From assembly GCA_964385685.1 (NCBI GenBank), contig CAYLQD010000004.1:29397-93396 (forward strand): 64,000 nt of DNA, written 5' to 3'. The notes beneath the pieces were generated by a model that saw only the letters and a list, made by a program, of their open reading frames with translations, was not told the DNA's origin and searched no databases. The position numbers and the translations under genes were made by a program. Source of the DNA: an uncultured Planctomycetota bacterium. Its GTDB lineage: Bacteria > Planctomycetota > PUPC01. Position 1 is the stretch's first letter; the number at the start of each line of letters is the position of its first letter. This document shows, piece after piece, positions 25,376 through 50,341 of the stretch.

Positions 25376-25412
25376 ACATGTTGATGAAAATGCGGAAGGT
25401 TTCGCGGCCGAA
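25376..25412. repeat. 37-bp direct repeat, left copy (ACATGTTGATGAAAATGCGGAAGGTTTCGCGGCCGAA)
   Basis: Matches 29951-29987 at 35/37 positions. On the minus strand it encodes a duplicated C-terminus …FGRETFRIFINM plus stop, identical to the end of the membrane-protein gene at 29949-30569. Confidence 0.85.
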
Positions 25413-25521
25413 GAGCGACCGAACGTGCTTGCCAAGAGCCGAGGGGGCCTCTACAATACTCCCGTCCGGCGCGACGCTGGGGCGCCCGAGTCGACAACCC
25501 ATTACGCAGGGAAGCAGTTCA

Positions 25522-28251
25522 TTGCCTGAGCAGATCAAGGACCTCGACAACCTCGAGCCCATCGATCATGCGGTGATCGCGAAGCCGCACACGCCGGCCT
25601 ACAAGATGCACCGCTACTTCGCACGGCGGCCGTGGAGCGTCTTCCGAGCGCTCATCGAGCACTACTCCAATCCTGGCAGCATTGTGCTCGACCCCTTCTG
25701 CGGCGGCGGGGTGACCGTCGTCGAGGGACTTCGGCTCGGCCGCAAGGTTATCGGCGTGGACTTGAACTCGCTGGCGACGTTCATCACGCGCATGGAGGCG
25801 ACCGACGTTGACCTCGATGAATTGCAGGCGGCCTTCGACGCGGTCGAGGCGGCCTGCCGCGAGAAGATCGAAGCGCTCTACATGACCACCTGCCCGAAGT
25901 GCGGCGAGCGTGTCGCAGCCGACTGGTTTGAGTGGAGCAACGTCGTCGAATGTCGAGAGTGCGGCCGGGTCGTGGAACTCCACCGGGCCGAGCGGGTGCG
26001 CAAGGGCGAGAAGATCGCTGGTGTGTCGGCAGGGGAGTACAAGTGCTACCACAAAGGTTGCGAGGCCGCTTGGCGCCCCTCGCAGTGTGACCGAGTCGAT
26101 CCAGTGCTCGTCCGCGTACACGTCAGGTGTCCGAGATGCAAACACCGGGGGGACTTTGGCCCAGCGGCGGATGATCTGCGATTGGCGGATTCCATTCGTA
26201 GCGACCTCGATGCGTGCATGAGGCGCGAGAGACTGTGGTACCCGGACATCGAGATGCCGGATTGGTGGGATCTGCGCCGTCCGTACAATGCGCACATCAA
26301 GCGGTTCGCCCACCTGTTCACACCTCGGAATCTGCTGGCGAACGCTGTCCTTGCAAAGAGCGTGACGGAGGGCCCTTTCGAGGGTCAGGTGCAGAACCTT
26401 CTTGTGTTTGCCTTCAGCGCGTCGCTCCGATTCACCAACCGGATGGTCTTCCGCAACCCGGGCTGGCAAGGCGGAAAGCCCATCGAATGGGCGAGCAGTA
26501 CGTACTGGCTGCCGGAAGTCTTCTGCGAAATAAACACATGGGCCGCATGGGAGAACAGACGAAGGTCGGTAACCCGGGGCAAGCAGTACTCCTGTGAGGA
26601 AATCGGGGACAAATCGGTTCTATGCGACCGCTACGAAGACCTGCGCACCGACGGAACAGCGTTTGTGTGGGCGGGCAGTTCGACCGACCTTCCGCTGCCC
26701 GACAACTCAGCGGACGTGGTCATCACCGACCCGCCTTACGGGAACAACGTCCTGTACGCCGAACTCTGCAATTTCTACTGGGCATGGGTCGGGCGTATGC
26801 TGGAATCGAACGGCCTGATCGACGACTCGGAGGAGGCCATTGTCAGCAAGAAGCATGACAAGGGACTCGCGGAGTATCGGGACCTGCTTTTCCGGGTCTT
26901 CAAGGAATGTCATCGCGTCCTCAAGCCGGGCCGATGGATGGTCATGACGTTCCACAACAAGGAGTTCCAGGTCTGGAATGCCATCCATCTTGCGGCACAC
27001 GACGCCGGGTTTGTCCTGGCCGAGCACGATGGGATGATCTACCAGCCGCCGATCAAGAACTACACGCAGACGATCCAGACCCGAAGAAGCGGTTCGATGC
27101 TCGGCGATTTCATCCTCTCATTCCAGAAGGTGGAGGGGCCGCCGGCGTTCAGGCAGATCGAGCACGCAGAGATCGGGCGGCAGGTCGAGCGCCTGGCGTC
27201 AGAAGCGGTCATGCACCATCACGGCGCCACGCTTTCGATGATATACATGAAGCTGATGCCGTGGCTTCTGAACAACAACCTGCTCGACCAAATCGGCGAG
27301 AAAGAGGTGGTTCCGTTCCTCCGCGGGAACTTCGAGGAGCGGGACGGTGTGTGGCACGTGAAGGAGGTGCAGGGGGCAGAGCTGCGGCAGGCGATGGAGG
27401 AATACAGCCGTCAGCACTACAAGGCATCCTACGAAGAACTGAACTTCGTGCCGGTTGAGGCGCGCATCGAGTACCTCGTCAAGCGCCTGCTCTACGGAAA
27501 GGGCTACGCGACCCAGGACGAGGTCCTGAACACGATCTACACGAACCTCATCAACTCAAACATGGCTGAGGCGCGCGAAATCCACTTGGTGCTCAACAGC
27601 ATAGCCCAGCTCGTGCCCCTGTCCGACGTAACGGGCGGCGGGCGGAAGAAAAAAAGCGGCCGGAAGGTCTGGCGCCTCAAGGAAGACATCGAGCGCGACT
27701 CGCTTTTCCGCGACGTAGAGGGCGCCGACGTTCAGTATCGGCTCGCAAGCTCGGAGGAATCCGACCACGACCTGGCAATCGCGCGCCTGGTCGAAATGGC
27801 GGCGATGCAAGGCATGAAAGCGCACATCGGCAAGACGGAGCAGACGAAGTACACCGAGTTCCGCATCATGACGAGCGACCTGCCGCAGCGCGTGGCGGGA
27901 ATGCCGAAGGCGGCGCGCGAAATCGTGGAGCAGATCGACGTCCTCTGGCACAATGGCGGGAAGGGGGTCGTCGCCGCGTTCGAGGTCGAGCGGACGACGA
28001 CCATCACGAGCGGGATTGACCGCTTTCGCAACCTCCTCGCGGCGGCGCCGGACATCGAGGTCGAACTGTACCTCGTTGTGCCCAAATCCCGCGCGAGGGA
28101 AGTACGGGCCAAGATTGGCTCGCCCGCCAATCGCAAGGACGGCCTTGACAAGAGAATCGGCTACATCTTTCTGGAAGACTTGAACATTCGGAATCGCAGC
28201 GCGTCCAAGGTCGATTTCGAGAAAATCAAGCACAAGGTCAACGGCAAATGA
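25522..28251 (+). CDS. DUF1156-like N6-adenine/N4-cytosine DNA methyltransferase with Cys-rich insert and ~450-aa C-terminal extension
   Basis: MHRYFARRPWSVFRALIEHYSNPGSIVLDPFCGGGVT (DUF1156-like 'WWARRP' segment plus FxGxG motif I). Downstream VVITDPPYGNNV (DPPY motif IV). Several CxxC pairs lie between (CPKCG…CRECG, CPRCKH). The maximal ORF begins at 25378, inside the direct repeat; a likelier start is TTG 25522 (GGGAAG upstream). Start uncertain. Confidence 0.75.
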   Translation: MPEQIKDLDNLEPIDHAVIAKPHTPAYKMHRYFARRPWSVFRALIEHYSNPGSIVLDPFCGGGVTVVEGLRLGRKVIGVDLNSLATFITRMEATDVDLDELQAAFDAVEAACREKIEALYMTTCPKCGERVAADWFEWSNVVECRECGRVVELHRAERVRKGEKIAGVSAGEYKCYHKGCEAAWRPSQCDRVDPVLVRVHVRCPRCKHRGDFGPAADDLRLADSIRSDLDACMRRERLWYPDIEMPDWWDLRRPYNAHIKRFAHLFTPRNLLANAVLAKSVTEGPFEGQVQNLLVFAFSASLRFTNRMVFRNPGWQGGKPIEWASSTYWLPEVFCEINTWAAWENRRRSVTRGKQYSCEEIGDKSVLCDRYEDLRTDGTAFVWAGSSTDLPLPDNSADVVITDPPYGNNVLYAELCNFYWAWVGRMLESNGLIDDSEEAIVSKKHDKGLAEYRDLLFRVFKECHRVLKPGRWMVMTFHNKEFQVWNAIHLAAHDAGFVLAEHDGMIYQPPIKNYTQTIQTRRSGSMLGDFILSFQKVEGPPAFRQIEHAEIGRQVERLASEAVMHHHGATLSMIYMKLMPWLLNNNLLDQIGEKEVVPFLRGNFEERDGVWHVKEVQGAELRQAMEEYSRQHYKASYEELNFVPVEARIEYLVKRLLYGKGYATQDEVLNTIYTNLINSNMAEAREIHLVLNSIAQLVPLSDVTGGGRKKKSGRKVWRLKEDIERDSLFRDVEGADVQYRLASSEESDHDLAIARLVEMAAMQGMKAHIGKTEQTKYTEFRIMTSDLPQRVAGMPKAAREIVEQIDVLWHNGGKGVVAAFEVERTTTITSGIDRFRNLLAAAPDIEVELYLVVPKSRAREVRAKIGSPANRKDGLDKRIGYIFLEDLNIRNRSASKVDFEKIKHKVNGK

Positions 28252-29942
28252 GCGGACTTCTGTCGCCAGACCAGGTTGATGAGCGCCGGGAGTTGTTTCG
28301 GCGGTGCCTGAACATGGACATCCTTCGAGCGCAGCGCTATGCGGTAGAACTCTCCGAAGAGAAGTTCCTCGAAGCCATCAACGGCACGGCGCGAGACCTG
28401 CTCGGGATGAACATGAAGGTTCCGGCTGATTTCCCTGACAACTATTTCGGCCAGTACTACACGATTCAGAACCGGACGCTCGCCGCCGGCAACATCTGGG
28501 ATCAGTTGGAAAACGACATCGTGCAGTGTCTCACGGCTGAGCGGGAGACGCGCGAAGCCCTGGAGTACTTCCTGAATCAGCCGGGATACGAAGCAGACTT
28601 CACTGGGATCAAGGCGCGATTCAACCGATGGCGGAATACACTGGATGTCCTCCTCGGCTTCCGCCTTATCCGCAAGATGCCAAGCCGGACCCGGGACGTC
28701 ACGACCTACGCTCTCTATAACGAGATGGCCCCCTTGCTGAGACGGGTCCTTTCGTCTTCGGCGGCCGACGACCTGCCGGTCATCAACTCGGAAGCGGCGC
28801 AGGCCGAGCTTGCGAACGTCCACGAAATGGAGCGCGAATACGAGCAGTACCTCGAAGGACTGGTCGAGCAGCGCCTGGACGAGACCGTCGAGTTCGGACG
28901 GCAGCACATGAGCTTAGGACTCGTCGCCACGTACTTCAAGGAACTCTTCGGCGGCCTGCTTTATTTCGACGTGCTGCTCTCGTTGGCCCAGCAGTACGGC
29001 ATGACCGCCACGGACATCGTGAATCCCGAGGGCACCAAGGCCGGCTCGACGGGCTTTCATCTGGCGCTCTTCGGCGCTCCGGGAACCGGGAAGACTTTTG
29101 CCATCAAAGACATGATTATGGGCGATGAAAGCAGGACCATACGGCCCCACGGGCTCCCGGGCCTCAACCGGTACTGCGGCGGGATGACGGCGGCAAACTT
29201 CATCCGCATCGGCGAAGCGTACCAGGGCAAGCGTTTCAACTTCGTTGTCACCGAGTTCAACGACTGGTTCCGGTACAAAGGGATGGTCGAACCGCTCAAG
29301 TTAGCCCTTGAGCAGGGCACCATCCGTTACGAGACAAAGACCGAGACTATCGGACCGTACAAATTCAGTTGCTATTTCTCCACCAACTACAACACGAAAA
29401 CAGACAAGGAAGCAGGCTACAGGGTCACGGTTGCTGATCCGAACTTCAACGCCATAGAGGACAGGATGCTCGTTCGGATGCACCGTATGACGAAGGAACG
29501 GCTCGGAGAACTAAGCCGCAGCCAGCGCGATCTCGCGATGGGACGCATGAAGATGCGCCTGGCGGACCAGATAAGAGATCACCTGACCCTTGTATACGCT
29601 GTCCAGACGGAACATCCCCTGGTGAGTGCGCGGTTCCCCAGAAAGCAAGTGGTCTTGAGAGAGGGCTTCTTTGACGCGCTGGAGCACGCCCAGGAAGCTC
29701 TTCTTCGCCAGATAGAGGGGCGTATCCTCTTCAGCATCCGCGTGCGGCAAAACGCCATCAAGTTGGCCGGGGCGTTGGCACTCCTATCCTCTTTCCGGGG
29801 CGACCTCGCACGGCTCGAGATTCCCGATGAGGCGCGCGACCTTGCGCTCCGCTTCTTCGTGGAGGAGATCGCCGTCCGACAGAAGGTTGCCGTAGACGTC
29901 AACGCTGTTCTCGGCGAGCTGCCTGCCGGGCTCGCCAAGTGA
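28248..29942 (+). CDS. P-loop (AAA+-like) ATPase with ~270-aa N-terminal domain of unknown function
   Basis: Walker A LALFGAPGTGKTF, Walker B-like FNFVVTEFNDW, sensor-like CYFSTNYNT. The ATG overlaps the MTase stop (ATGA), implying translational coupling. Confidence 0.7.
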   Translation: MSGLLSPDQVDERRELFRRCLNMDILRAQRYAVELSEEKFLEAINGTARDLLGMNMKVPADFPDNYFGQYYTIQNRTLAAGNIWDQLENDIVQCLTAERETREALEYFLNQPGYEADFTGIKARFNRWRNTLDVLLGFRLIRKMPSRTRDVTTYALYNEMAPLLRRVLSSSAADDLPVINSEAAQAELANVHEMEREYEQYLEGLVEQRLDETVEFGRQHMSLGLVATYFKELFGGLLYFDVLLSLAQQYGMTATDIVNPEGTKAGSTGFHLALFGAPGTGKTFAIKDMIMGDESRTIRPHGLPGLNRYCGGMTAANFIRIGEAYQGKRFNFVVTEFNDWFRYKGMVEPLKLALEQGTIRYETKTETIGPYKFSCYFSTNYNTKTDKEAGYRVTVADPNFNAIEDRMLVRMHRMTKERLGELSRSQRDLAMGRMKMRLADQIRDHLTLVYAVQTEHPLVSARFPRKQVVLREGFFDALEHAQEALLRQIEGRILFSIRVRQNAIKLAGALALLSSFRGDLARLEIPDEARDLALRFFVEEIAVRQKVAVDVNAVLGELPAGLAK

Positions 29943-33359: not shown

Positions 33360-34769
33360 TCAACCGACGAGGAGGTATTCCTCCGGGTACTGATACCGGT
33401 TCGACTTGTCCGCCGTGAAAACCATCTGCGCAAGCGCAAGCGGCCCGAGCCGGCCCAGATACATCACACATATGATGATGAGCTTGCCGCCCCATGTCAA
33501 GGCGCCCGTCTCGGCCGTGGTCAACATGCTGAGCCCGACGGTCCCGAACGCCGACACGACCTCGAACAGCAGTTCAACGAATTCCAGATCCTGGCCGCCT
33601 GCCCGTGCGGGGCCGTCGGTTATGAGGAGCAGCATCGTGGCGAACACGACCAGCAACACGCCAAGCACGGCGACGACGAGCGCCTTTGTGATTACGGCGG
33701 CCGGAATGGTCCGCCGGCCGACCTCCACGCGCTCGTGACCGCGCAGCCGAGCCAGCACGACCAGGAGGATGACGACGAGCGTCGTCGTCTTGATCCCGCC
33801 GGCCGTCGAGCCCGGCGAGCCGCCGATGACCATCAGGACCAGAGCCAGAAAGCCCGTCGCGTCGGACGCTTCGCCGAAGTCGAGCGTGTTGAAGCCCGCG
33901 GTGCGAGTCGTTACCGACTGGAACCACGCCACAGTGGCGCGTTCGCTCACCGATGCCTCTTCCGGACCAATCCTCGGCCGCTGGAACGCGAAGAAACCGG
34001 CCGTGCCCAGGACAAGGAGCACGATGGTCGCGATGAAGACGATCTTCGCGTGCAAGCTCAGCTTAACGCGGATGCCGCGCAGCCGCAGCCGGAACTTGTT
34101 GTAGACGTCGATGAGGGCCGGGAAGCCGATGCCGCCGAAGATGATCAGGCCCGGGACCATGAGGTTGATCGTCAGGTCGGCCCGGTATTCCTGAAAACTC
34201 GTCTGAAACAGCGAGAAACCCGCGTTGCAGAACGCCGAGATCGAGTGGAAAATGCCCGCCCACACGTGATGGTGTTCGAGCCCCTCGACGCCGCCGAACC
34301 GGCGGCTCAGCACAAACGCCCCGGCCACCTCCGCAATGAGCGTGAACCCGCCGACGATCAGGAGCAGGCGTCTCGCGGACCCGACGCCCGAGACCGTATA
34401 CTCGCCGCGCAGCATGATCAGGTTACGCAGCGACGAGCGATTCCCGAGCGTCAGCAGCACGAACGTCGACGTGGCCATGATGCCCAGCCCGCCGAACTGG
34501 ATGAGCAGCAGAACCACACCCTGGCCGAACGGCGTGAACCGCGATCCGGTCTCGACGACGATCAGGCCCGTCACACAGACGGCGGACGTCGCCGTGAAGG
34601 CCGCATCGACGAGCGAAATCGGTTCGGTGGTGGAGAACGGCAGCAGTAGAAGGACCGTGCCGACGCAGATGGCCGCGACGAAGAAGAGAGCCAGAAGCTG
34701 GACAGGGCCGAGCCCGGCCAGCCACCCTCGCACTCGTTCGACCACGCATGGCTCCCGTCGCGGGCTCAT
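33360..34769 (-). CDS. trkH: Trk/Ktr potassium transporter membrane subunit (TrkH/KtrB family)
   Basis: 469 aa polytopic protein with repeated pore-loop motifs (…TGL…, GGLG, GFS, SAFGTVG). Confidence 0.85.
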   Translation of the reverse strand: MSPRREPCVVERVRGWLAGLGPVQLLALFFVAAICVGTVLLLLPFSTTEPISLVDAAFTATSAVCVTGLIVVETGSRFTPFGQGVVLLLIQFGGLGIMATSTFVLLTLGNRSSLRNLIMLRGEYTVSGVGSARRLLLIVGGFTLIAEVAGAFVLSRRFGGVEGLEHHHVWAGIFHSISAFCNAGFSLFQTSFQEYRADLTINLMVPGLIIFGGIGFPALIDVYNKFRLRLRGIRVKLSLHAKIVFIATIVLLVLGTAGFFAFQRPRIGPEEASVSERATVAWFQSVTTRTAGFNTLDFGEASDATGFLALVLMVIGGSPGSTAGGIKTTTLVVILLVVLARLRGHERVEVGRRTIPAAVITKALVVAVLGVLLVVFATMLLLITDGPARAGGQDLEFVELLFEVVSAFGTVGLSMLTTAETGALTWGGKLIIICVMYLGRLGPLALAQMVFTADKSNRYQYPEEYLLVG

Positions 34770-34915
34770 GGGGCTCGCGCGGGCATGCCGCCCACGCCGT
34801 TCGCGCGGGCATTATAGCATTTTGCGCGCCGCCGCTTCAACCGACACCCCCGCCCTTCGAGCGGTGGCCGGCGGGCTCCGTGTGTTTCGTGGCAAGCAAG
34901 CCACCGCTCACTGAC

Positions 34916-35160
34916 CGCTGATCACTGCTTTCTTGTGCCTTGCTTGCCCTGAGCTTGTCGAAGGGGTGCCTTGGTGGCTGCAGAAGCCGTTGCCGTTCTT
35001 CGTGCTCTTCGTGAGCTTCGTGGTTGCTGAGGCCGTTGCCGCTCACCCCTGTTCCCTGCCCCCTGATCACTGCTTCTTTGTGCCTTTGTGCCTTGGTGGT
35101 AAGGAAGCCGTTGCCGTTCGCCTCCGTTCCCTGCTCCCTGATCACTGCTTCATTCGGTTC
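34916..35160. repeat. imperfect tandem repeats (~75-bp unit, ~2.3 copies, first copy with internal ~70-bp expansion) in 1.1-kb non-coding region
   Basis: The unit starts CTGATCACTGCTT(C/T)… and contains CCTTGGTGG…GAAGCCGTTGCCGTT…GTTCCCTGC(C/T)CC. Copies begin at 34916, 35061 and 35136. A GAAGCCGTTGC fragment recurs at 35597. Confidence 0.6.
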
Positions 35161-35908
35161 AGGGCGGATGTCCGGTCCTATGTCACGTCATCGCAGGACG
35201 GCGAAACTCCTTTCCGCGTTTGGCTCGAGGAAGTGCGAATGCGCGAGGTCGCGACGGGGTCGCTCGCCCGGTCGCTCCGCTTGCCAGACGGCCCAGACGT
35301 GGCCGGAAAAATCGGCCCGCCCAAACAAACCGTGCTCATCCGGCAGCAGACTCCCAGGCATCCTTCCACAAGCGGCCCGTACGCAGAAAACCGGGACTGG
35401 CACACCGTTGCCTGTCCCGTTTTCTGCCGGGCCGCCTCGCGTCGCTCTTTCAGACGCGCGCTCCTTCCAGGCGTCATCCCTTTCTACCCAACCCGCACGC
35501 TTTGAACCTCCATCCTCAGAAACACTCACCGCCGAGATCGCTGAGGACGCAGAGAGGAACATGAGCCGGTCTCTGCGATCTCTGCGTCCTCCGCGGTGAA
35601 GAAGCCGTTGCAGCGGGAAACCGTCCCCGTAGAATGCATACACCACAAATCGCCCCAATGCAAGCCCTCCAGCAAGAAATACCACACATTTCTTCGCAAG
35701 ATCTGGCTAACGGATGTTGTGGGCGTATGATACGCCGATGTCGATTGTGTGGCCTTTTTTGGCCAGGACGGAGATTCACGGCCTTTAGACGCAGATAAAC
35801 GCAGAGCGCGCAGACCCGGAAAGGGCCAGGGGGCCGCTTTTGGAGTGCGGCGGCACGACGCCGCTTTCAGTGCGCCCGGAGGGTGGAATTAGGTAAGACG
35901 TCCCCCGA

Positions 35909-36601
35909 TTAGGCCAGTCCCGTCTTCACATCCTTGAACCCGGGCGTAAGCGCTCGGGGGTCAGATTTGGCAAGTTGGACAAACGCCTTGAGGATATCTA
36001 TCGCGGCTACGCGGGCCGGGGCTCGTCGTGTCTTCTTCTTTTTCAGTCGGCCCAGCCATCCGTGGCTGAAGTTCTTGTGCCAGTCCACGAACTCGTCCCA
36101 GGTCCACCATTTCCCGGGTTTGGCGAAAGGCTCACACAGCACAAAGGCCATCCGATCCTTCTTGTCATCGGCATCTTGGTAGCCTGCGATGATCGCATCT
36201 TCCATCCACGGCGCTCTTGCCGGCGTACCTGAGTCGAGAGCTCTCTTCAGTGCCTGCCACGCTCCCTCAGGAGTCTTATACCGACGCCAATCCCACGCCG
36301 CCCCGGTGGAGTCTTTCACGCGCTGCCAAAGACCTTCCGGCGGCGTGCAGAACGCATAATCATTCAAGGGCTGGTGTTTCATCGGTTTGTAGACGAAGCT
36401 AGACCCAAAACCAGACATCGTCATCAGCGTCTCATAGTCCATCTTATTCCAGCCGGCCGCCTTCATACACACCAGGTCGCACATGATCCGTGTCATCGGC
36501 TGCCAGTACGTCTTGTCTGTATACTCGTTGACCCGATCAAAGATGTTCGATACGCGTTTCAGCAACACACGCTTCTGTTTCGTGTGCTTTGACTTGCTCA
36601 T
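35909..36601 (-). CDS. hypothetical protein (paralog 1 of a two-member family; Trp-rich C-terminal domain)
   Basis: 230 aa. Shares a conserved ~80-aa domain with the next gene (AWDWRRYKTPEGAWQALKRALDSGTP…EDAIIAGYQDADDKKDR…WWTWDEFVDW). Codon usage differs from neighbours (AAA/TTT/TAT/GAT codons). Confidence 0.5.
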   Translation of the reverse strand: MSKSKHTKQKRVLLKRVSNIFDRVNEYTDKTYWQPMTRIMCDLVCMKAAGWNKMDYETLMTMSGFGSSFVYKPMKHQPLNDYAFCTPPEGLWQRVKDSTGAAWDWRRYKTPEGAWQALKRALDSGTPARAPWMEDAIIAGYQDADDKKDRMAFVLCEPFAKPGKWWTWDEFVDWHKNFSHGWLGRLKKKKTRRAPARVAAIDILKAFVQLAKSDPRALTPGFKDVKTGLA

Positions 36602-36674
36602 TTGCTCACCTCCTGTTCCCTTTTCTAACCATTCGCTTCAGGCGCGGCTCCCAGCCGTCGCCTGGAAGCGGTTG

Positions 36675-37676
36675 TTAGCCAACGGCCAGTTTCTCCATGC
36701 TTGCCAGAATCTTCTTCTCGGCCTCAAGAGCCGTGCCAACAGTGTCTCTGATAGCTTGCCGACCCGACTCGGTATCGCGCCTATTGCCGAACCCCTCGCT
36801 GGCAAACCGCCCCAAGCTCTCGGCGGCAGTGCGATAGTTCCCGGCGATATCGCCCACCAGGGCGGCCACGTCGCCATTTAGCTTCTCTGCCGCATCGCCG
36901 AAGTAATCGGCGAGGGCCGCGCGCGCGTTATGCTGGAAGTTGATCGCGATGCAGTCGATGTATTCATTCGGGATTTCGATATCCGGCTGCAGCAAGTCGG
37001 CCAGGAACCGCTCGAGGGCGCTGATGCCGTAGTTGGCCGAGACGCCAAAGCGTCCCACGGCGTGGTGGTTGTCCTGCCAATCAACAACCCGATTGGCCAG
37101 AATCCTCACGGCCTCCTCGCGCTGGGGCTTCCGCGTCTTCTCCGCCGCAAAGTACATGCCGCCCCCAGGAAGCGGCACCCATTGGGGAACCCACTCCGAA
37201 AACTTCTCCCAAGGCACCTCGCCGTCCAGGGCTGGGCCGCCTACGCCGCGTGCGCGCACGGACCTGTCTGCAACGTCATCGGCATCCGTGTAGGCATACA
37301 CGACCGAGTCTTCCGGGCCGGCCATCTTCACTGGGTTGCCTGCATCCAGCCCGGTCTTGATGAAATCCCACGCTTCCTGTGGGTCGGCGGTCCACGTGGC
37401 CTCAAAGCGGCACCCCAGCAAGCCGCCGGCGCGCTGTGGCAGGTCGATGTTGGACGAGTAGACACTGGCGAACTGGCCGCGCATGTAACAGAATGCCAGC
37501 CCAAGCCCGTCCGCGGCATGCGTTTCGCCCCAGGCGGTATCGGTATGCCCTGCTGCCTGCACCAGCAGATGCAGCACCTTAACGCCGCTGATGTTATGGG
37601 TATCGAGAATCGCTCTGTTGGCATCAAACAGCGCGTCCAGATTCAGTTCCATACGACCTTGGCTCTGGTGGGACAT
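36675..37676 (-). CDS. hypothetical protein (paralog 2; homologous to 35909-36601 over most of its length)
   Basis: 333 aa. EATWTADPQEAWDFIKTGLDAGNP…EDSVVYAYTDADDVADR…VPWEKFSEWVPQW aligns with paralog 1. Confidence 0.5.
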   Translation of the reverse strand: MSHQSQGRMELNLDALFDANRAILDTHNISGVKVLHLLVQAAGHTDTAWGETHAADGLGLAFCYMRGQFASVYSSNIDLPQRAGGLLGCRFEATWTADPQEAWDFIKTGLDAGNPVKMAGPEDSVVYAYTDADDVADRSVRARGVGGPALDGEVPWEKFSEWVPQWVPLPGGGMYFAAEKTRKPQREEAVRILANRVVDWQDNHHAVGRFGVSANYGISALERFLADLLQPDIEIPNEYIDCIAINFQHNARAALADYFGDAAEKLNGDVAALVGDIAGNYRTAAESLGRFASEGFGNRRDTESGRQAIRDTVGTALEAEKKILASMEKLAVG

Positions 37677-37746
37677 GTGCTCTTCCTCCTTCTGTCCATT
37701 GCGCTAACGCGAAGCTAAGCCGCGGCGTGTTCGCCGTCGGCTACGG

Positions 37747-38175
37747 CTACTTGTTGGCTGTTTCCCTGTATGCCTCCAGCAAGGCAGAAAGAAGAACTCC
37801 GTCGATTGTGGCGCTCTCGAGGTCGCAGCCCTTGATAGCGATGCCGGACAGGTCGCAATCCGTGAACGTGCTGCGGTTGAGATCGCACTCAACGAACTCC
37901 AAGGGCTCCTGCTTCGGAATGTTCCCGTCTTCGTCGGGGTGAAGTGAGAGATGCTTGAACTTCGCTCCACCCATTGTGACGGAGTGCATCGTGATGTTGG
38001 ACAGATTCACGTCCGCGAACGACGCGTTGACCATGTTGACGTGGTCGAACCTGGCTTCGGCCAACGCGACCTGCTGGAACGAACTGCGCGACATGTTGAG
38101 GTCTTCGAACTCGGACCCGGGGATGCCGCCGTATTTCACGACGAGCTTCTCGTCATTCTGAGGCTTCACTTCCAT
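37747..38175 (-). CDS. pentapeptide-repeat protein
   Basis: Tandem A(D/N)LSxx pentapeptide units (FQQVALAEARFDHVNMVNASFADVNLSNITMHSV…DCDLSGIAIKGCDLESA). AAAGGAG Shine-Dalgarno before the ATG. Confidence 0.7.
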   Translation of the reverse strand: MEVKPQNDEKLVVKYGGIPGSEFEDLNMSRSSFQQVALAEARFDHVNMVNASFADVNLSNITMHSVTMGGAKFKHLSLHPDEDGNIPKQEPLEFVECDLNRSTFTDCDLSGIAIKGCDLESATIDGVLLSALLEAYRETANK

Positions 38176-38713
38176 TTCGATCTCCTTTCATTCAGCCAAC
38201 GCTTGGGCTGAGGTGCGCGGTCCCCCCGTGCATCATGACCGGCCTGCGCGCTCAAGACAGCCCTTCCGCCGACGATGAAGGTCCCTGATGCCGATTCGGG
38301 GGAGTACCTGATTATGCGCCGCCCCCGGTGAAGTGTCAAACGCTTTCCACCCTCAAGGAGGTGACCCATGACGAAAGACAAAGAGACCGAAAAGAAGCCT
38401 CTGAAGAGGAATCGCGTCGCCCCTCATGGCATCCCCCTCGGGCCCAGCAAGCAGGTCGAGGTGATAGCTCTGGGGACACAATACTCAACTCCGCCCGGGT
38501 TTCTTCGCCGAGGGTCTCGGTCCGGGCTTCCGCCTGCGAAGTACACGGCCCCAGCGATCGGCACGATCATGCCCCCATCGAACCGTCCTGTCAAGGACGA
38601 TAGTCTGATGTCTCCAGACTCCCGCGCCGCATCCCATCTTGACCACCGCGCCGCCCCCTGATAGACTGCTTCGACCGAATCGGACGCCGCAACTCACTGG
38701 GAACCGAAGACCT

Positions 38714-43523: not shown

Positions 43524-44555
43524 GTGAGAGCATTTGCGCTGACGGCGCCGTCGACGTTCGGGTGGGCCGATGTGCCGGACGACCCGCCGCCCGGCCCCGG
43601 CGAGGCCGTCGTCCAGCCCAAGGCCTGCGGCATCTGCGCGTCGGACGTGCATTACTGGCTGCACGGCCGCATCGGCAGCCAGGTCGTCCGGGAGTATCCG
43701 TTCGCGCTCGGGCACGAGCCCAGCGGCGTTGTGGTCGAGGTCGGCGAAGGCGTGACGAACGTGAAGCCGGGCGACCGCGTCGCGATCGAGCCCGCGATCG
43801 CGTGCGGCGAGTGCACCTGCTGCAAGGCGGGCCGCGAGAACATCTGCCCGAACGTGATCTTCCTCGCGACGCCGCCCGTCCAGGGCGTCCTGCGCGAAAC
43901 GATGGTGACACGGGCGCGGAACCTCGAGCCCATCCCCGATTCCGTCTCGTTCGAGGCGGCCGCTCTGTGCGAACCGTTTGGCGTCGGCATCCACGCCGCG
44001 CGGCTGCCCGACCTCGCCGAGGGCGAGACGGTCGCGGTGTTCGGAGCCGGCCCGATCGGCTTGTCGACCGCGGTCGCCGCGCGGTGCCGCGGCGCGGGGC
44101 GTGTCCTCGTCGCCGAGCCCGTGCCCGAGCGCCGCGATGTCGCCGAGTCGATGGGCTTCGAGACGATCGACATCGACGATGATCCGGTGGAGCGGATTCA
44201 CGAGATGACGGGCGGCGGCGTCGACGTCGCATTCGAGGCTGCGGGCGATCCTCGGGCGATGGACTGGGCGACGCGCTCGCCGCGGCTCGGCGCCCGGGCC
44301 GTCATCATCGGCATCCCGGTCGAAGACACGATCTCGTTCGACATCCACACGATTCGTCGAATGGAGCTGACGATCTACAACTGTCGGCGGTCGAACCACG
44401 TGCTTGCCGAGGCAGTGCGCTTGCTTGAGGGGGCCGGGGCCGATATCGTCAAGATGTGCACGCACCGATTCCCGCTCGAGCAGGCGGAGCAGGCGTTTGA
44501 GATGGTCAACGACCGCCGCGACGGGGTCGTCAAGGCGATGCTGATGTGTGATTGA
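43524..44555 (+). CDS. zinc-dependent alcohol/polyol dehydrogenase (MDR superfamily; sorbitol/threonine dehydrogenase-like)
   Basis: GICASDVH…GHEPSGVV…CGECTCC (structural Zn), GAGPIGL Rossmann. Start placed at GTG 43524 behind GGAGGA; maximal ORF has a TTG at 43500. Confidence 0.85.
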   Translation: MRAFALTAPSTFGWADVPDDPPPGPGEAVVQPKACGICASDVHYWLHGRIGSQVVREYPFALGHEPSGVVVEVGEGVTNVKPGDRVAIEPAIACGECTCCKAGRENICPNVIFLATPPVQGVLRETMVTRARNLEPIPDSVSFEAAALCEPFGVGIHAARLPDLAEGETVAVFGAGPIGLSTAVAARCRGAGRVLVAEPVPERRDVAESMGFETIDIDDDPVERIHEMTGGGVDVAFEAAGDPRAMDWATRSPRLGARAVIIGIPVEDTISFDIHTIRRMELTIYNCRRSNHVLAEAVRLLEGAGADIVKMCTHRFPLEQAEQAFEMVNDRRDGVVKAMLMCD

Positions 44556-44600
44556 TGCGGCGTCGCGATGGTGGAGGCAGACATTCGCCTGTGCCCGCTT

Positions 44601-44620
44601 GGCGGACAAGAATGTCCGCC
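44601..44620 (+). terminator. perfect 8-bp stem/4-nt loop hairpin (GGCGGACA-AGAA-TGTCCGCC) 45 nt after the dehydrogenase stop
   Basis: Seen directly. No U-tract follows, so it could equally be an operator for the downstream regulator gene. Confidence 0.3.
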
Positions 44621-44635
44621 CCACCAGTTTGAGGT

Positions 44636-49365: not shown

Positions 49366-50300
49366 CACGCTCCTGCGCCCTCGCCCAAGAGCGCCCAGTT
49401 CATTCGCCCGATTGCCGCGGCCAGCATCGATTCGTCGGGCCGGCCCGGCGCATCGTGTTCCGCCAGCAGCAGGCGGTCGAGTTCCGTGTCGACGACGGCG
49501 ACGGACAGGACCTCTCGCGGCGAGCAGGACCCGAGCGGGAACGCGAGCCGCTTTCGCCCGGGCTGCCGCGTGCCCTCGAGCGTGCGCCCGAACGATTCCG
49601 CGCTCCACGGCCCGCCCTTGCCGGCGTCTTTGTATCTCCGGTGCTCCTTGAACGGCCACGTGCGCATCCAACGCTCGACCGGCCGCCGCGCGAGCGCCGT
49701 CTCCGCAGGGTAGACTTGCCTCAGCCAGAGGCAAGAGCCGTCGCCGCCGCGGAATCGCAGCGCCAGGTCGCCCAGCACGAGCTTGTGGTCGAGCGGACGA
49801 CAGCCCGCGGGCGACTCGAAGCTCGCCCCGAACACGGACCAGGCGATTGCCCTGCCCGTCTCCGAGACGACAAGCGAGGGCAGGACTTCCGCGGCCACGG
49901 TCCGTCGCGTCCGTTTCGCCGCGTCGAGGTTGACGGTCACCTCGATCACGAGCCCGGCCGCGGGCGCGTAGCCGTGCCAGAGCCGCAGCGGCGTCCGGCC
50001 GCTGCCGCTCTCGTCGCGCACCCAGGCCGTCTCGGAGAACCCACCGGGCCCCGGTGCGCCGGGCCCGGCGTCACGAGCTTTCAATGAGCGGAGCCGCCGC
50101 CGTATCCAGCGCCCGGCGTCGAATCGCTCTTTGCCCGGGCGCCACCACCGGATCTGAAACGCCGGCTCGTCGCCGCTGCCAAGAATCATGTTTCCCTGTC
50201 GCCAGCGGCCACTGATGCGCAGTGGGCGCCAGTCGGATGGGACACGTACCTGCCAGCCCATCCACGCCACACAAGTTGCACCCGTCCGCCCGCTGTCCAT
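49365..50300 (-). CDS. hypothetical protein (unknown function, Trp/Arg-rich)
   Basis: Maximal ORF to 50705 overlaps the 3' end of the upstream transporter gene; ATG 50300 is the first start beyond it. Its stop overlaps the PqqD-like ATG. No recognisable motifs. Weak call. Confidence 0.35.
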   Translation of the reverse strand: MDSGRTGATCVAWMGWQVRVPSDWRPLRISGRWRQGNMILGSGDEPAFQIRWWRPGKERFDAGRWIRRRLRSLKARDAGPGAPGPGGFSETAWVRDESGSGRTPLRLWHGYAPAAGLVIEVTVNLDAAKRTRRTVAAEVLPSLVVSETGRAIAWSVFGASFESPAGCRPLDHKLVLGDLALRFRGGDGSCLWLRQVYPAETALARRPVERWMRTWPFKEHRRYKDAGKGGPWSAESFGRTLEGTRQPGRKRLAFPLGSCSPREVLSVAVVDTELDRLLLAEHDAPGRPDESMLAAAIGRMNWALLGEGAGA

Positions 50301-50341
50301 CACCGTACTGTGCCTATCCCTCCTTTGCGGTCGGCGCACGA

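Follow-up and report, generated by a model that had tools for sequence, protein, structure and literature searches.

A gene-free 1.1-kb stretch beside the trkH operon of an uncultured planctomycete: a proximal promoter, a truncated gene and a repeat-bearing spacer

We conclude that the 1.1 kb of gene-free DNA beside trkH is not a transcribed leader of the trkH operon. We put at about 0.65 the probability that this DNA is a lineage-specific junction between a foreign gene segment and the native trkH promoter region. This reading builds on the conservation of the promoter, the truncation of the neighbouring gene, the lineage specificity of the spacer, the absence of homology and the anatomy of its repeats and hairpins.

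The stretch (34770-35908, 1139 bp) is the sole large gene-free one in the window, by which we mean the whole 64 kb of DNA that was analysed. It lies between the start of trkH (ORF 33360-34769, minus strand, assigned as TrkH by Pfam at E=5e-62) and the stop of a minus-strand gene at 35909-36601. On a crude GC3-based gene map the remaining gaps are about 0-260 bp, and two seemingly larger ones, at 44174-44635 and 49735-50341, read as coding sequence on inspection. The features of the locus are collected in the table.

Table. Features in and around the gene-free stretch (window coordinates)
Feature	Position	Strand	Details
trkH promoter	34811-34840	minus	-35 TTGAAG 34840-34835, 18-nt spacer, extended -10 TGcTATAAT 34819-34811
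Lineage-specific non-coding spacer	34855-35912		about 1.06 kb, from the conserved promoter region to the gene-truncating breakpoint
Hairpin	34891-34948	both folded	arms GGCAAGCAAGCCAC / GTGCCTTGCTTGCC, 14 nt, 93% complementary
Modular repeat block	34901-35178		75-bp units 35029-35103 and 35104-35178; rearranged earlier copy 34901-35028
Solo copy of widespread small hairpin element	34946-34966	plus	stem GCCCT/AGGGG, 11-nt loop GAGCTTGTCGA
Long near-perfect hairpin	35372-35438	both	A-tract, inner GC-rich stem-loop, then GUUUUCUGC
Inverted repeat	35526-35599		30-nt arms, 14 nt apart, 9-nt CGCAGAG-type sub-repeats
3'-truncated BtrH_N-like gene	35909-36601	minus	230 aa; full-length relatives 343-352 aa
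Distant paralogue of the truncated gene	36675-37676	minus	333 aa; 22% identity, E=1e-7
Pentapeptide-repeat protein	37747-38175	minus	Pfam

A first, sequence-only reading of this DNA had seen no convincing ORF in the 1.1 kb, and our searches agree with it. None of the 10 ORFs of the gap matched Pfam at E<=1, and all are orphans. The ORF at 35030-35599 (plus strand), which public gene callers annotate, matched itself alone among 1.84 billion representative proteins, bar one spurious match to a low-complexity Ig-repeat protein. A 190-aa ORF at 34933-35505 had no match among 5.8 billion proteins. The spacer frames gave nothing in Pfam, NCBIfam or PDB, and tblastx of the spacer against the relatives and against the window returned compositional noise alone. 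GC3 is about 0.70 in the spacer, compared with 0.85 in native genes, and three-base periodicity is weak (34830-35370). The first reading had also recognised no ydaO-type riboswitch; consistent with this, Rfam gave 0 matches at the gathering threshold across the whole window, and sub-threshold miRNA/snoRNA noise alone in 34600-36100 at E<=10. The segments 34880-35170, 35162-35371 and 35612-35908 showed no excess stability over shuffles on either strand (z -1.0 to +0.6). The spacer contains neither coding sequence nor a conserved RNA, and the best annotation for the gap is that of a repeat region beside a truncated gene.

The trkH promoter and the truncated gene

The promoter site at 34840-34811 is the only sigma-70-like one in 34600-36100, with 10/12 matches plus the TG, against 0.1 expected. 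When we aligned the region upstream of trkH in three relatives (L128, L130 and L131, with TrkH proteins 70% identical), the TTGA(A/T)G and TGCTATAAT boxes were invariant. The upstream neighbours of trkH in these relatives are unrelated. The aligned part of the window in blastn against L130 was 34854-34805, and the gap upstream of trkH in the three relatives is just 157-240 bp. The named TrkH homologue P0020, labelled Planctomycetota, is 65% identical, and on this basis we assign the host to the Planctomycetota. Judged from these sequences, trkH transcription would start near 34803. The predicted leader measures about 35 nt if translation begins at the ATG at 34769, and about 59 nt if it begins where gene callers place the start. 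As the promoter is both proximal and conserved, the real leader is about 35-60 nt long and 1.06 kb of the gap sits upstream of the promoter. The initial description of the region as a leader upstream of the trkH operon has therefore to be given up. Regulation of trkH needs no exotic leader, and a large gene-free gap beside a transporter operon can be a rearrangement scar; comparison of the promoter with relatives resolves the two quickly. Here 'scar' names the position, not the origin, of the DNA, notably of 35179-35912.

At the other edge of the spacer, homologues of the truncated protein (65-78% identity) span all of its 230 aa yet run about 120 aa longer. In tblastn with P0122, residues 1-229 aligned and nothing downstream did. 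The 78% nucleotide homology to the full-length orthologues in L149 and L150 stops at 35913 in both. The breakpoint is 35912/35913, and the stop codon, TAA at 35909-35911, is created at the junction.

An islet of atypical composition next to the gap had been noticed from the letters alone. This held up: GC is 0.53-0.62 at 35550-36900, compared with about 0.66 in the flanks, and the islet is absent from L128, the closest syntenic relative. L128 shares the GH2, radical-SAM and NTP-transferase genes with the window and has a GHMP-kinase gene in place of the islet and spacer, divergent and 157 bp from trkH; in the window lineage about 3.8 kb occupies this place. The proposal that the repeats are arm-type sites of a former integration event found no support, since the window has no tRNA or tmRNA, the genes called within 10 kb include no integrase or transposase and carry no Y1_Tnp domain, and the islet is not flanked by direct or inverted repeats. 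The spacer itself has no terminal inverted repeats or target duplication. We also looked in the spacer for a remnant of the GHMP kinase, using the L128 protein, and for the missing 120 aa of the truncated gene, using a full-length orthologue, and tblastn found neither. The earlier suggestion of a decayed gene was thus right about the neighbour, which is truncated exactly at the spacer edge, and wrong about the spacer, in which no gene remnant could be detected.

Repeats and hairpins of the spacer

The tandem repeats of about 75 bp reported in the sequence-only reading were recovered as two clear units and a third, partial one. A repeat search aligned 35029-35079 with 35104-35154 (51 nt, 86% identity, 75-bp spacing), and the partial copy at 34901-34941 is 66-80% identical. 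The recurring short motifs were also real. The modules that recur in the block are GAAGCCGTTGCCGYTC, GTTCCCTGCYCC and CTGATCACTGCTT; CTGATCACTGCTT(C/T) has 3 occurrences, all inside the gap region, against 0.33 expected. GAAGCCGTTGC or a one-mismatch variant is found at 34983, 35029, 35104 and 35601, and at <=1 mismatch it has 9 matches in the window, where 2.29 are expected; 0/100 shuffles reached this number. (C)CTTGGTGG lies at 34969-34977 and 35091-35099, and each CTGATCACTG box holds a GATC/TGATCA palindrome. The block also contains tandem sub-repeats of 7-9 nt, namely CTTTGTGC (x2.9), TCTTCGTGA (x2.9) and TCCCTGC (x3.1). TRF did not report the 75-bp period; it returned four short arrays within 34997-35149 (periods 9, 14, 8 and 7; 2.0-3.1 copies), which indicates that the 75-bp unit is itself built of heptamer to nonamer sub-repeats. 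There is no second copy of the block and no other heptamer-repeat cluster anywhere in the 64-kb window, and within the window the repeats are specific to the locus.

We compared the block with other contigs of the same population. Against a 15.8-kb contig, 4/8 differences fall within 60 bp, at 35028, 35031, 35053 and 35087; against a 20.7-kb contig, 2/2 do, at 35028 and 35053. The block is the SNP hotspot of an otherwise near-clonal population. Contigs of two other assemblies break inside it, with ends at 34974, 35026, 35035 and 35060. Since these breaks coincide with the clustered SNPs, strain heterogeneity is the simpler cause, and we rejected dispersed repeats as the explanation. The spacer is identical in kind across all 4 public contigs of the population, which indicates that rapid loss is not under way and counts against our main reading.

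Similar modules were found in other phyla. GTTCCCTGyyCCCTrATCAC is part of a Gloeothece element, and heptamer arrays on Nostoc, Fischerella and Planktothrix plasmids match modules of the block. For 35042-35080, the best plasmid matches are nearly all cyanobacterial heptamer arrays, e.g. (CCCCCTG)n in Nostoc flagelliforme. In L227, heptamer repeats lie beside the hairpin core in the same architecture as in the window. A metagenome scan with GCCGTTGCCGN{15,25}CTGATCACTGC gave 16 matches, 14 of them chance ones in coding DNA and two (L134 and L139) related elements. A scan of a genome collection with GGTGN{2,6}GAAGCCGTTGC was discarded as too loose, as at least 120 of its matches were chance ones in coding DNA.

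The small hairpin at 34946-34966 has 4/5 stem pairs formed and is flanked by GTGCCTTG-type octamer sub-repeats. Its exact 20-mer is found on numerous plasmids from several phyla, where most of the sites are unannotated and a single record often has several of them, and its exact 19-mer in more than 120 IMG/VR stretches. The range of the hairpin covers Planctomycetota, Cyanobacteria, Alpha-, Beta- and Gammaproteobacteria, and viral or proviral contigs. We define the family by an 11-nt loop, GAGC(T/C)TGTCGA, closed by a 5-bp complementary stem, and the window copy conforms to it. In 24 unselected arms the stem was 92.5% paired, compared with 71% in shuffles (0/500 reaching the observed value), and pairing in the same arms fell to 37-50% when the partner was slid. 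The stem of the family covaries and the loop is invariant. The covariance model gave the window copy 38.1 bits, a score to be read with the fact that this copy is one of the nine arms used to build the model; there was no second copy in the 64-kb window and none in 55 kb of relatives. The other repeat units share CCGTTC and TGAGCTT strings with the family; as they scored nothing at E<=10, we rejected them as degenerate hairpin arms.

In its typical form the family is an inverted pair between CCGTTCG...CGAACGG at many sites per replicon. The window copy has CTTGCTT in place of the CCGTTCG flank, and no partner arm at <=2 mismatches. Among 136 IMG/VR instances, the CCGTTCG flank is present in 24 and a downstream partner (an inverted hairpin within about 160 nt, ending in CGAACGG) in 28, which shows that solo copies are common. 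The family is absent from Rfam, and the searchable literature, queried by sequence and by peptide string, contained no mention of the hairpin sequence. Intergenic DNA bearing this hairpin is routinely mistranslated by gene callers.

We suggest tentatively, and with the balance clearly against it, that the block is a locally amplified, still-mutating member of an undescribed cross-phylum class of composite small elements. Such a class would combine the invariant-loop hairpin (GAGCTTGTCGA) and its freely covarying 5-bp stem with an (A/G)ATCAC box and with tandem heptamers or octamers that differ between species. Invariance of the loop on a covarying stem across phyla would imply a conserved protein that recognises the single-stranded hairpin and, if the class is real, this could be an HUH-type transposase or a host factor. 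The hairpin family is the only lead at this locus worth following: if it is indeed undescribed, the identity of the loop-binder would explain very common bacterial intergenic DNA.

Three further structures lie in the spacer. The hairpin at 34891-34948 has a 30-nt loop that contains the first CTGATCACTGC box, and its fold has z = -3.0 (plus strand) and z = -3.9 (minus strand). That at 35372-35438, with an inner stem GGGAC-GGCA/UGCC-GUCCC and GUUUUCUGC directly after it on either strand, reaches -47.2 kcal/mol (z -7.4) on the plus strand and -48.4 kcal/mol (z -6.9) on the minus strand, and 0/200 shuffles were as stable on either. With its stem between an A-tract and a U-tract it resembles a bidirectional intrinsic terminator; a simple scan for terminators passed over it. 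The hairpin is about 480 nt past the end of the truncated gene and, as predicted from its sequence and fold, probably terminates read-through from the islet before the trkH promoter. The inverted repeat at 35526-35599 (-46.4 kcal/mol, z -3.8) is followed by the fourth GAAGCCGTTGC box, at 35601-35611. Two megaplasmids of Gemmatirosa kalamazoonensis carry similar GGACGCAGAGG hairpins, at 10 places on one and 3 on the other; one of these hairpins sits between a stop codon, which it closely follows, and a T-run. Smaller signals are a perfect palindrome of 15 bp (GGCGTATGATACGCC, 35722-35736), a TAGAAT box (35630-35635) and a weak hairpin with a T-run (35847-35875). A replication origin or iterons were rejected, as DnaA boxes are absent and AT content reaches only 60% in the most AT-rich 40 nt.

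Origin of the spacer and alternative explanations

In the course of events that we infer, the foreign segment would have carried the pentapeptide-repeat gene and the two BtrH_N-like genes; its last gene is cut at codon 229, with 1.06 kb between the cut and the promoter region. The material of this spacer is STRR-like heptamer to nonamer sub-repeats, assembled into the locally duplicated 75-bp unit, together with two strong hairpins and the solo copy of the cross-phylum hairpin. The block may evolve by slippage or gene conversion, slippage being our presumed mutational mechanism, and either would result in a polymorphism hotspot and in assembly breaks at the block. Functional consequences would be only incidental, in that the 35372-35438 hairpin would end read-through from the islet and trkH would keep its proximal promoter.

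The spacer could alternatively be, or contain, remnants of small non-autonomous REPIN/MITE-like mobile elements that were inserted and then amplified at the site; insertion followed by deletion would have truncated the gene, and the repeats would then have arisen not by slippage but as selfish DNA that is mobilised in trans. The typical inverted pairs of the hairpin family at many sites per replicon, the multi-copy CGCAGAG-type hairpins of Gemmatirosa, and a related element, GCCGTTGCCGTT-(CACTGAT)n, which occupies two distinct intergenic settings in a single metagenome, are consistent with this. However, the core occurs once in 64 kb and not at all in 55 kb of relatives, and the window copy is solo, with neither CCGTTCG flank nor inverted partner. 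The spacer also has no terminal inverted repeats or target duplication, no transposase was called within 10 kb, and the covariance model does not see the other units as degenerate arms, so we consider mobile elements an unlikely source. It is quite unlikely that the locus encodes strain-specific sRNAs, either on the plus strand from about 35640 to 35847-35875 or as a 3' UTR of the islet operon ending at 35383 and stabilised by the 35526-35599 hairpin. The strong local hairpins, the palindrome at 35722-35736 and the TAGAAT box would suit sRNAs here, and the terminator-like hairpin is compatible with the 3' UTR. Against both, Rfam gave no match, 35612-35908 folds like shuffles (z -1.0 and -0.1), no plus-strand promoter was called in 34600-36100, and no homologue was found outside the population, which leaves selection on an sRNA unsupported. 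An unconserved sRNA, or a second, distal trkH promoter, may lie in the spacer.

Regulatory and coding readings have still less in their favour. The regular recurrence of three to four motifs in the 80-340 bp before the promoter, with a palindrome in each CTGATCACTG box, could suggest an array of upstream sites for a regulator or nucleoid protein that modulates trkH or a divergent promoter. This is very unlikely, as the relatives retain the promoter without the array, no other stretch of the locus is as polymorphic as the block, and its motifs are like generic repeat material of other phyla. We believe even less in a decayed coding gene (the missing C-terminus, a lost GHMP kinase or a toxin-like gene), to which the truncated neighbour and the weak periodicity might point: neither the full-length orthologue nor the GHMP kinase of L128 gave a tblastn match in the spacer, the frames matched nothing in Pfam, NCBIfam or PDB, and tblastx gave noise alone. 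A plus-strand frame at 35175-35330, which by eye we took to be RelE/HigB-like at its N-terminus, was rejected as a toxin remnant after the same three databases gave nothing for it. K+ transporter operons of some phyla carry c-di-AMP riboswitches, and the region lies upstream of trkH on the same side. Nevertheless, it is highly improbable that the trkH-trkA operon has a long structured 5' leader or a riboswitch here: the conserved extended -10 promoter and the start codon are 35-60 nt apart, Rfam and folding gave no signal, a strong terminator-like hairpin lies inside the region, and the relatives lack the region altogether.

Comparison with known systems

The ydaO/kimA-type c-di-AMP riboswitch is like the region in its position upstream of a trk operon and in nothing else: no threshold gave a covariance-model match, and the region lies upstream of the promoter. 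Bidirectional intrinsic terminators occur between convergent or tandem genes. Like them, 35372-35438 has a GC-rich stem, and each strand reads a hairpin plus UUUUCU; it differs in lying about 480 nt beyond the nearest stop codon, and its role is predicted from sequence.

Repetitive extragenic palindromes (REP/BIME/REPIN) have been described in detail (Di Nocera et al. 2013, PMC3733652; Bertels & Rainey 2011, PMC3116915). REPs are short imperfect intergenic palindromes, often in inverted pairs, clustered and tandemly reiterated with flanking DNA, and their stem-loop ends on one side in a GTAG or CGTC tag that is left unpaired (PMC3733652). The spacer resembles them in its palindromes able to form stem-loops, at 34946-34966 and at 35526-35599 (30-nt arms, against a criterion of 20-40 bp), and the 34946-34966 family shows the inverted-pair architecture elsewhere. 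However, the spacer hairpins lack the end tag: GTAG occurs only at 35484 (minus) and 35629 (plus), away from the hairpins, and the CGTC sites are internal to the arms of the repeat at 35526-35599. The invariant loop and covarying stem of the 34946-34966 family are a further difference, and each spacer hairpin has one copy within the 64-kb window.

The repeat block also resembles elements of cyanobacteria. STRR heptamers, the short tandemly repeated repetitive sequences that Mazel et al. reportedly described in 1990, are highly iterated throughout the genome of heterocystous cyanobacteria. The block shares with them its intergenic runs of 2-4 tandem heptamers to nonamers. It differs in that its host is a planctomycete, its arrays are very short, and they are interleaved with non-repetitive boxes and the hairpin core. 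Small dispersed repeats and MITE-like elements of cyanobacteria are said to have been treated by Elhai et al. in 2008. The composite element of Gloeothece, at 26 places on one plasmid, has two modules in common with the window block and consists of a CTGAGCTTGTCGAAG core between two runs of heptamer repeats, with AATCAC at the end of the second. In the window the modules follow another order, and the block is a local tandem duplication and not a dispersed copy.

Gene layout and limits of the spacer

The minus strand carries every gene around the spacer, with trkA, a hisA-like gene and an aminotransferase gene following trkH downstream. The sequence-only reading had described 1.1 kb without a convincing ORF, unusual among the intergenic distances of the window. 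Both points held: only orphan ORFs occur in the 1139 bp separating trkH from the 230-aa gene, and our crude gene map gave no other substantial non-coding gap in the window. On the plus strand, 25378-29942 encodes two proteins in overlapping genes. The first, of ~909-957 aa (909 aa as called; the window ORF has 957 aa), carries N6_N4_Mtase and NmeDI_C domains, and the second, of 564 aa, carries no Pfam domain; situated between a thioredoxin gene and the trk operon, the two may be a restriction-modification or defence pair. At 38405 the window has a T that is missing from an ENA contig (L121). This one-base indel falls in a 97-aa ORF (38368-38661), annotated by some gene callers upstream of the NTP-transferase gene, and argues against its being a real gene.

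Features of the trkH locus and related elements
Feature	Location	Strand	Remarks
trkH	33360-34769	minus	Pfam TrkH, E=5e-62
Predicted trkH promoter	34840-34811	minus	same boxes as relatives
Smaller hairpin	34891-34948		fold search
Hairpin GCCCT-GAGCTTGTCGA-AGGGG	34946-34966		window copy of widespread family
Near-perfect hairpin	35372-35438	both	~-48 kcal/mol, z ~-7
Inverted repeat, 30-nt arms of CGCAGAG-type nonamers	35526-35599		fold z -3.8
230-aa BtrH_N-like gene	35909-36601	minus	upstream of trkH, across gap
333-aa gene	36675-37676	minus	upstream side of trkH
Pentapeptide-repeat gene	37747-38175	minus	upstream side of trkH
GCCGTTGCCGTTAATGCT(C/T)ACTG-(CACTGAT)n element	L134 820-857, L139 929-966		metagenome Ga0136651, two different intergenic sites
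Hairpin family examples	L152, L153, L154, L155, L156, L157, L158-L277

The 230-aa protein has homologues (65-78% identity) of 343-352 aa. When a full-length homologue (P0122) was used as tblastn query, residues 1-229 aligned and the alignment then ended. Nucleotide homology (78%) to two independent loci with full-length orthologues, L149 and L150, ended at window 35913 in both, the stop codon lay right at the junction 35912/35913, and the missing 120 codons were not detectable downstream. The gene is evidently a 3'-truncated copy of a ~350-aa protein; its nearest untruncated relatives, at 78% identity, come from one Verrucomicrobiota MAG contig and one metagenome contig. The 333-aa gene, itself full-length, is distantly paralogous to it (22% identity). 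At the left edge, similarity to relatives begins at ~34854. The comparison of boundaries that had been proposed earlier therefore delimits the novel DNA to 34855-35912, which had no counterpart among protein families, solved structures or protein databases.

The closest TrkH homologue outside the population is 74% identical, and the only organism-labelled one above 50% (P0020, Planctomycetota) is 65% identical. Set against window 34770-38640, three relatives' loci (L128, L130 and L131; TrkH ~70% identical) each have a different upstream neighbour (GHMP kinase, zinc-dependent dehydrogenase, small ORF), and the DNA immediately upstream of the conserved trkH promoter is, judging from this comparison, a synteny breakpoint in the clade. 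In common with the window, L128 has glycoside hydrolase, radical-SAM and NTP-transferase genes; a GHMP-kinase gene, absent from the window, heads its NTP-transferase/radical-SAM cluster in place of the three islet genes and the spacer. A GHMP-kinase remnant in the spacer was rejected, as no trace was found.

We consider the spacer to be a junction scar, with a probability of about 0.65. A foreign segment ending inside the BtrH_N-like gene would have been joined to the native trkH promoter region, with non-coding repeat and hairpin material as filler between them.

The trkH promoter and structures within the spacer

The region had been suggested to be a structured leader of the trkH operon. TTGA(A/T)G, 18 nt and TGCTATAAT lie immediately upstream of trkH in all three relatives, where the upstream gaps are 157 bp (L128), 195 bp (L131) and 240 bp (L130). 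The window has these boxes at the only promoter-like site from a scan of 34600-36100, so transcription would be expected to start near 34803, ~35-60 nt before the start codon. The 1.06-kb spacer sits upstream of this predicted promoter. It had no match in Rfam, which agrees with the earlier remark that no c-di-AMP (ydaO-type) riboswitch core could be recognised by eye, and the repeat block and other sub-regions folded no better than shuffles (z -1.0 to +0.6). We infer that the 1.1-kb region is not a leader, and a long trkH leader is the least probable of the explanations weighed here.

Three local structures stood out in a fold search of the spacer. In the strongest, at 35372-35438, GUUUUCUGC comes after the inner stem on either strand, which gives it the look of a bidirectional terminator; termination of read-through there is the sole likely effect of the spacer. 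Hairpins similar to the CGCAGAG one, likewise with arms of GGACGCAGAGG repeats, are multi-copy on two Gemmatirosa megaplasmids (13 places). One of them (L151; Gemmatirosa kalamazoonensis plasmid NZ_CP007129.1, 310402-310472; 12 further places) is terminator-like, since it lies directly after a stop codon, ahead of a T-run. The spacer also holds a perfect 15-bp palindrome, GGCGTATGATACGCC (35722-35736; 7-bp arms, central G), that looks like an operator.

The repeat block and its hairpin family

Two to three imperfect tandem copies of a ~75-bp unit had been reported, and we recovered them: two copies of a 51-nt segment, 86% identical, are spaced 75 bp apart (35029-35079 and 35104-35154), and a third, less well matched, begins at 34901. 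The recurring short motifs were also confirmed, with 2-4 occurrences each, more than in shuffles. TRF did not report the 75-bp period but gave four arrays within the block, with units of 7-14 nt; the 75-bp unit is thus a mosaic, composed of very short tandem repeats together with a few fixed boxes. A search of the 64-kb window for a similar repeat found none, making it locus-specific at that scale.

Exact-protein matches put the locus on metagenome contigs of a single, otherwise nearly clonal population (JGI 3300009128 and 3300013119, ENA SUTE22-1), whose SNPs are concentrated in 60 bp of the block (35028, 35031, 35053, 35087). Against the window, the JGI contig shows two differences in 20.7 kb (35028 and 35053) and an ENA contig eight in 15.8 kb, four of which lie at 35028-35087. 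In two other assemblies, contigs end in the same block (34974, 35026, 35035, 35060). The locus has its mutational hotspot in this block, consistent with slippage or gene conversion where the DNA is unconstrained; this also explains the assembly breaks, and dispersed copies are not needed.

The hairpin at 34946-34966 belongs to a family with a nearly invariant 11-nt loop, GAGC(T/C)TGTCGA, and a covarying 5-bp stem, commonly arranged as CCGTTCG, hairpin, spacer, inverted hairpin, CGAACGG. It occurs on plasmids of Alpha-, Beta- and Gammaproteobacteria, Cyanobacteria and Planctomycetota. An identical 20-mer was found in plasmids of Sphingobium (up to 10 places per record), Polaromonas and Comamonas, and 22-24-nt near-identical matches (92-96%) in Novosphingobium, Moraxella, Methylotuvimicrobium, Sinorhizobium and the planctomycete Singulisphaera; these plasmid places are mostly unannotated. 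A Gloeothece element, at 26 places on one plasmid, includes a hairpin variant, and tandem arrays exist (L191, period 23). A 19-mer was present in >120 IMG/VR stretches against <1 expected, a rough estimate assuming a ~100 Gb collection. Among 24 partner arms, unselected by the search, the stem was 92.5% paired, against 71% in shuffles (0/500 reaching the observed value) and 37-50% for slid partners, with changes on both sides in 22 cells; a smaller set of nine arms agreed. The family has no Rfam entry, and the searchable literature yielded no paper with its sequence. We regard the spacer as an ordinary finding, and this family is the sole lead worth following from the locus.

Alternative origins and kinship with known repeats

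All rivals were graded less likely than the junction scar. The foremost, still unlikely, is a cluster of mobile REPIN/MITE-like elements: the hairpin family is widespread, while a scan with its covariance model recovered a single copy from the window and nothing from the relatives. A small RNA specific to the strain, or a long 3' UTR, to be weighed with the strong hairpin on one side and the empty Rfam scan on the other, is less probable again. An upstream regulatory array would suit tandem copies lying beyond the promoter and sits poorly with a hotspot in seemingly unconstrained DNA; we give it very little weight. A decayed gene is slimmer still: a neighbouring gene is indeed truncated at the spacer edge, and inside there is no protein match or trace of the lost codons or of a GHMP kinase. 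Arm-type repeats of a former integration site, also suggested earlier, found no support, with no tRNA, integrase or flanking repeats near the spacer.

As for the spacer's repeat material, short tandem sub-repeats flank the core on both sides in the window and in other copies alike, as in L227, with (TGCCTAC)n and (GCGGATT)n, L172 and Gloeothece, with (TTCCCTG)n. The window module GTTCCCTGyyCCCTGATCAC matches the Gloeothece element and also heptamer arrays of cyanobacterial plasmids. A related GCCGTTGCCGTT-(CACTGAT)n element, in two distinct intergenic contexts of another metagenome (L134, L139), has a GCCGTT hexamer pair and the string CTCACTGAYCRCTGATCACTGCTT in common with the block. Although it is a standard member of no named family, the shared architecture and module matches place the block with small repeat material of the kind known as REP, STRR or SDR.
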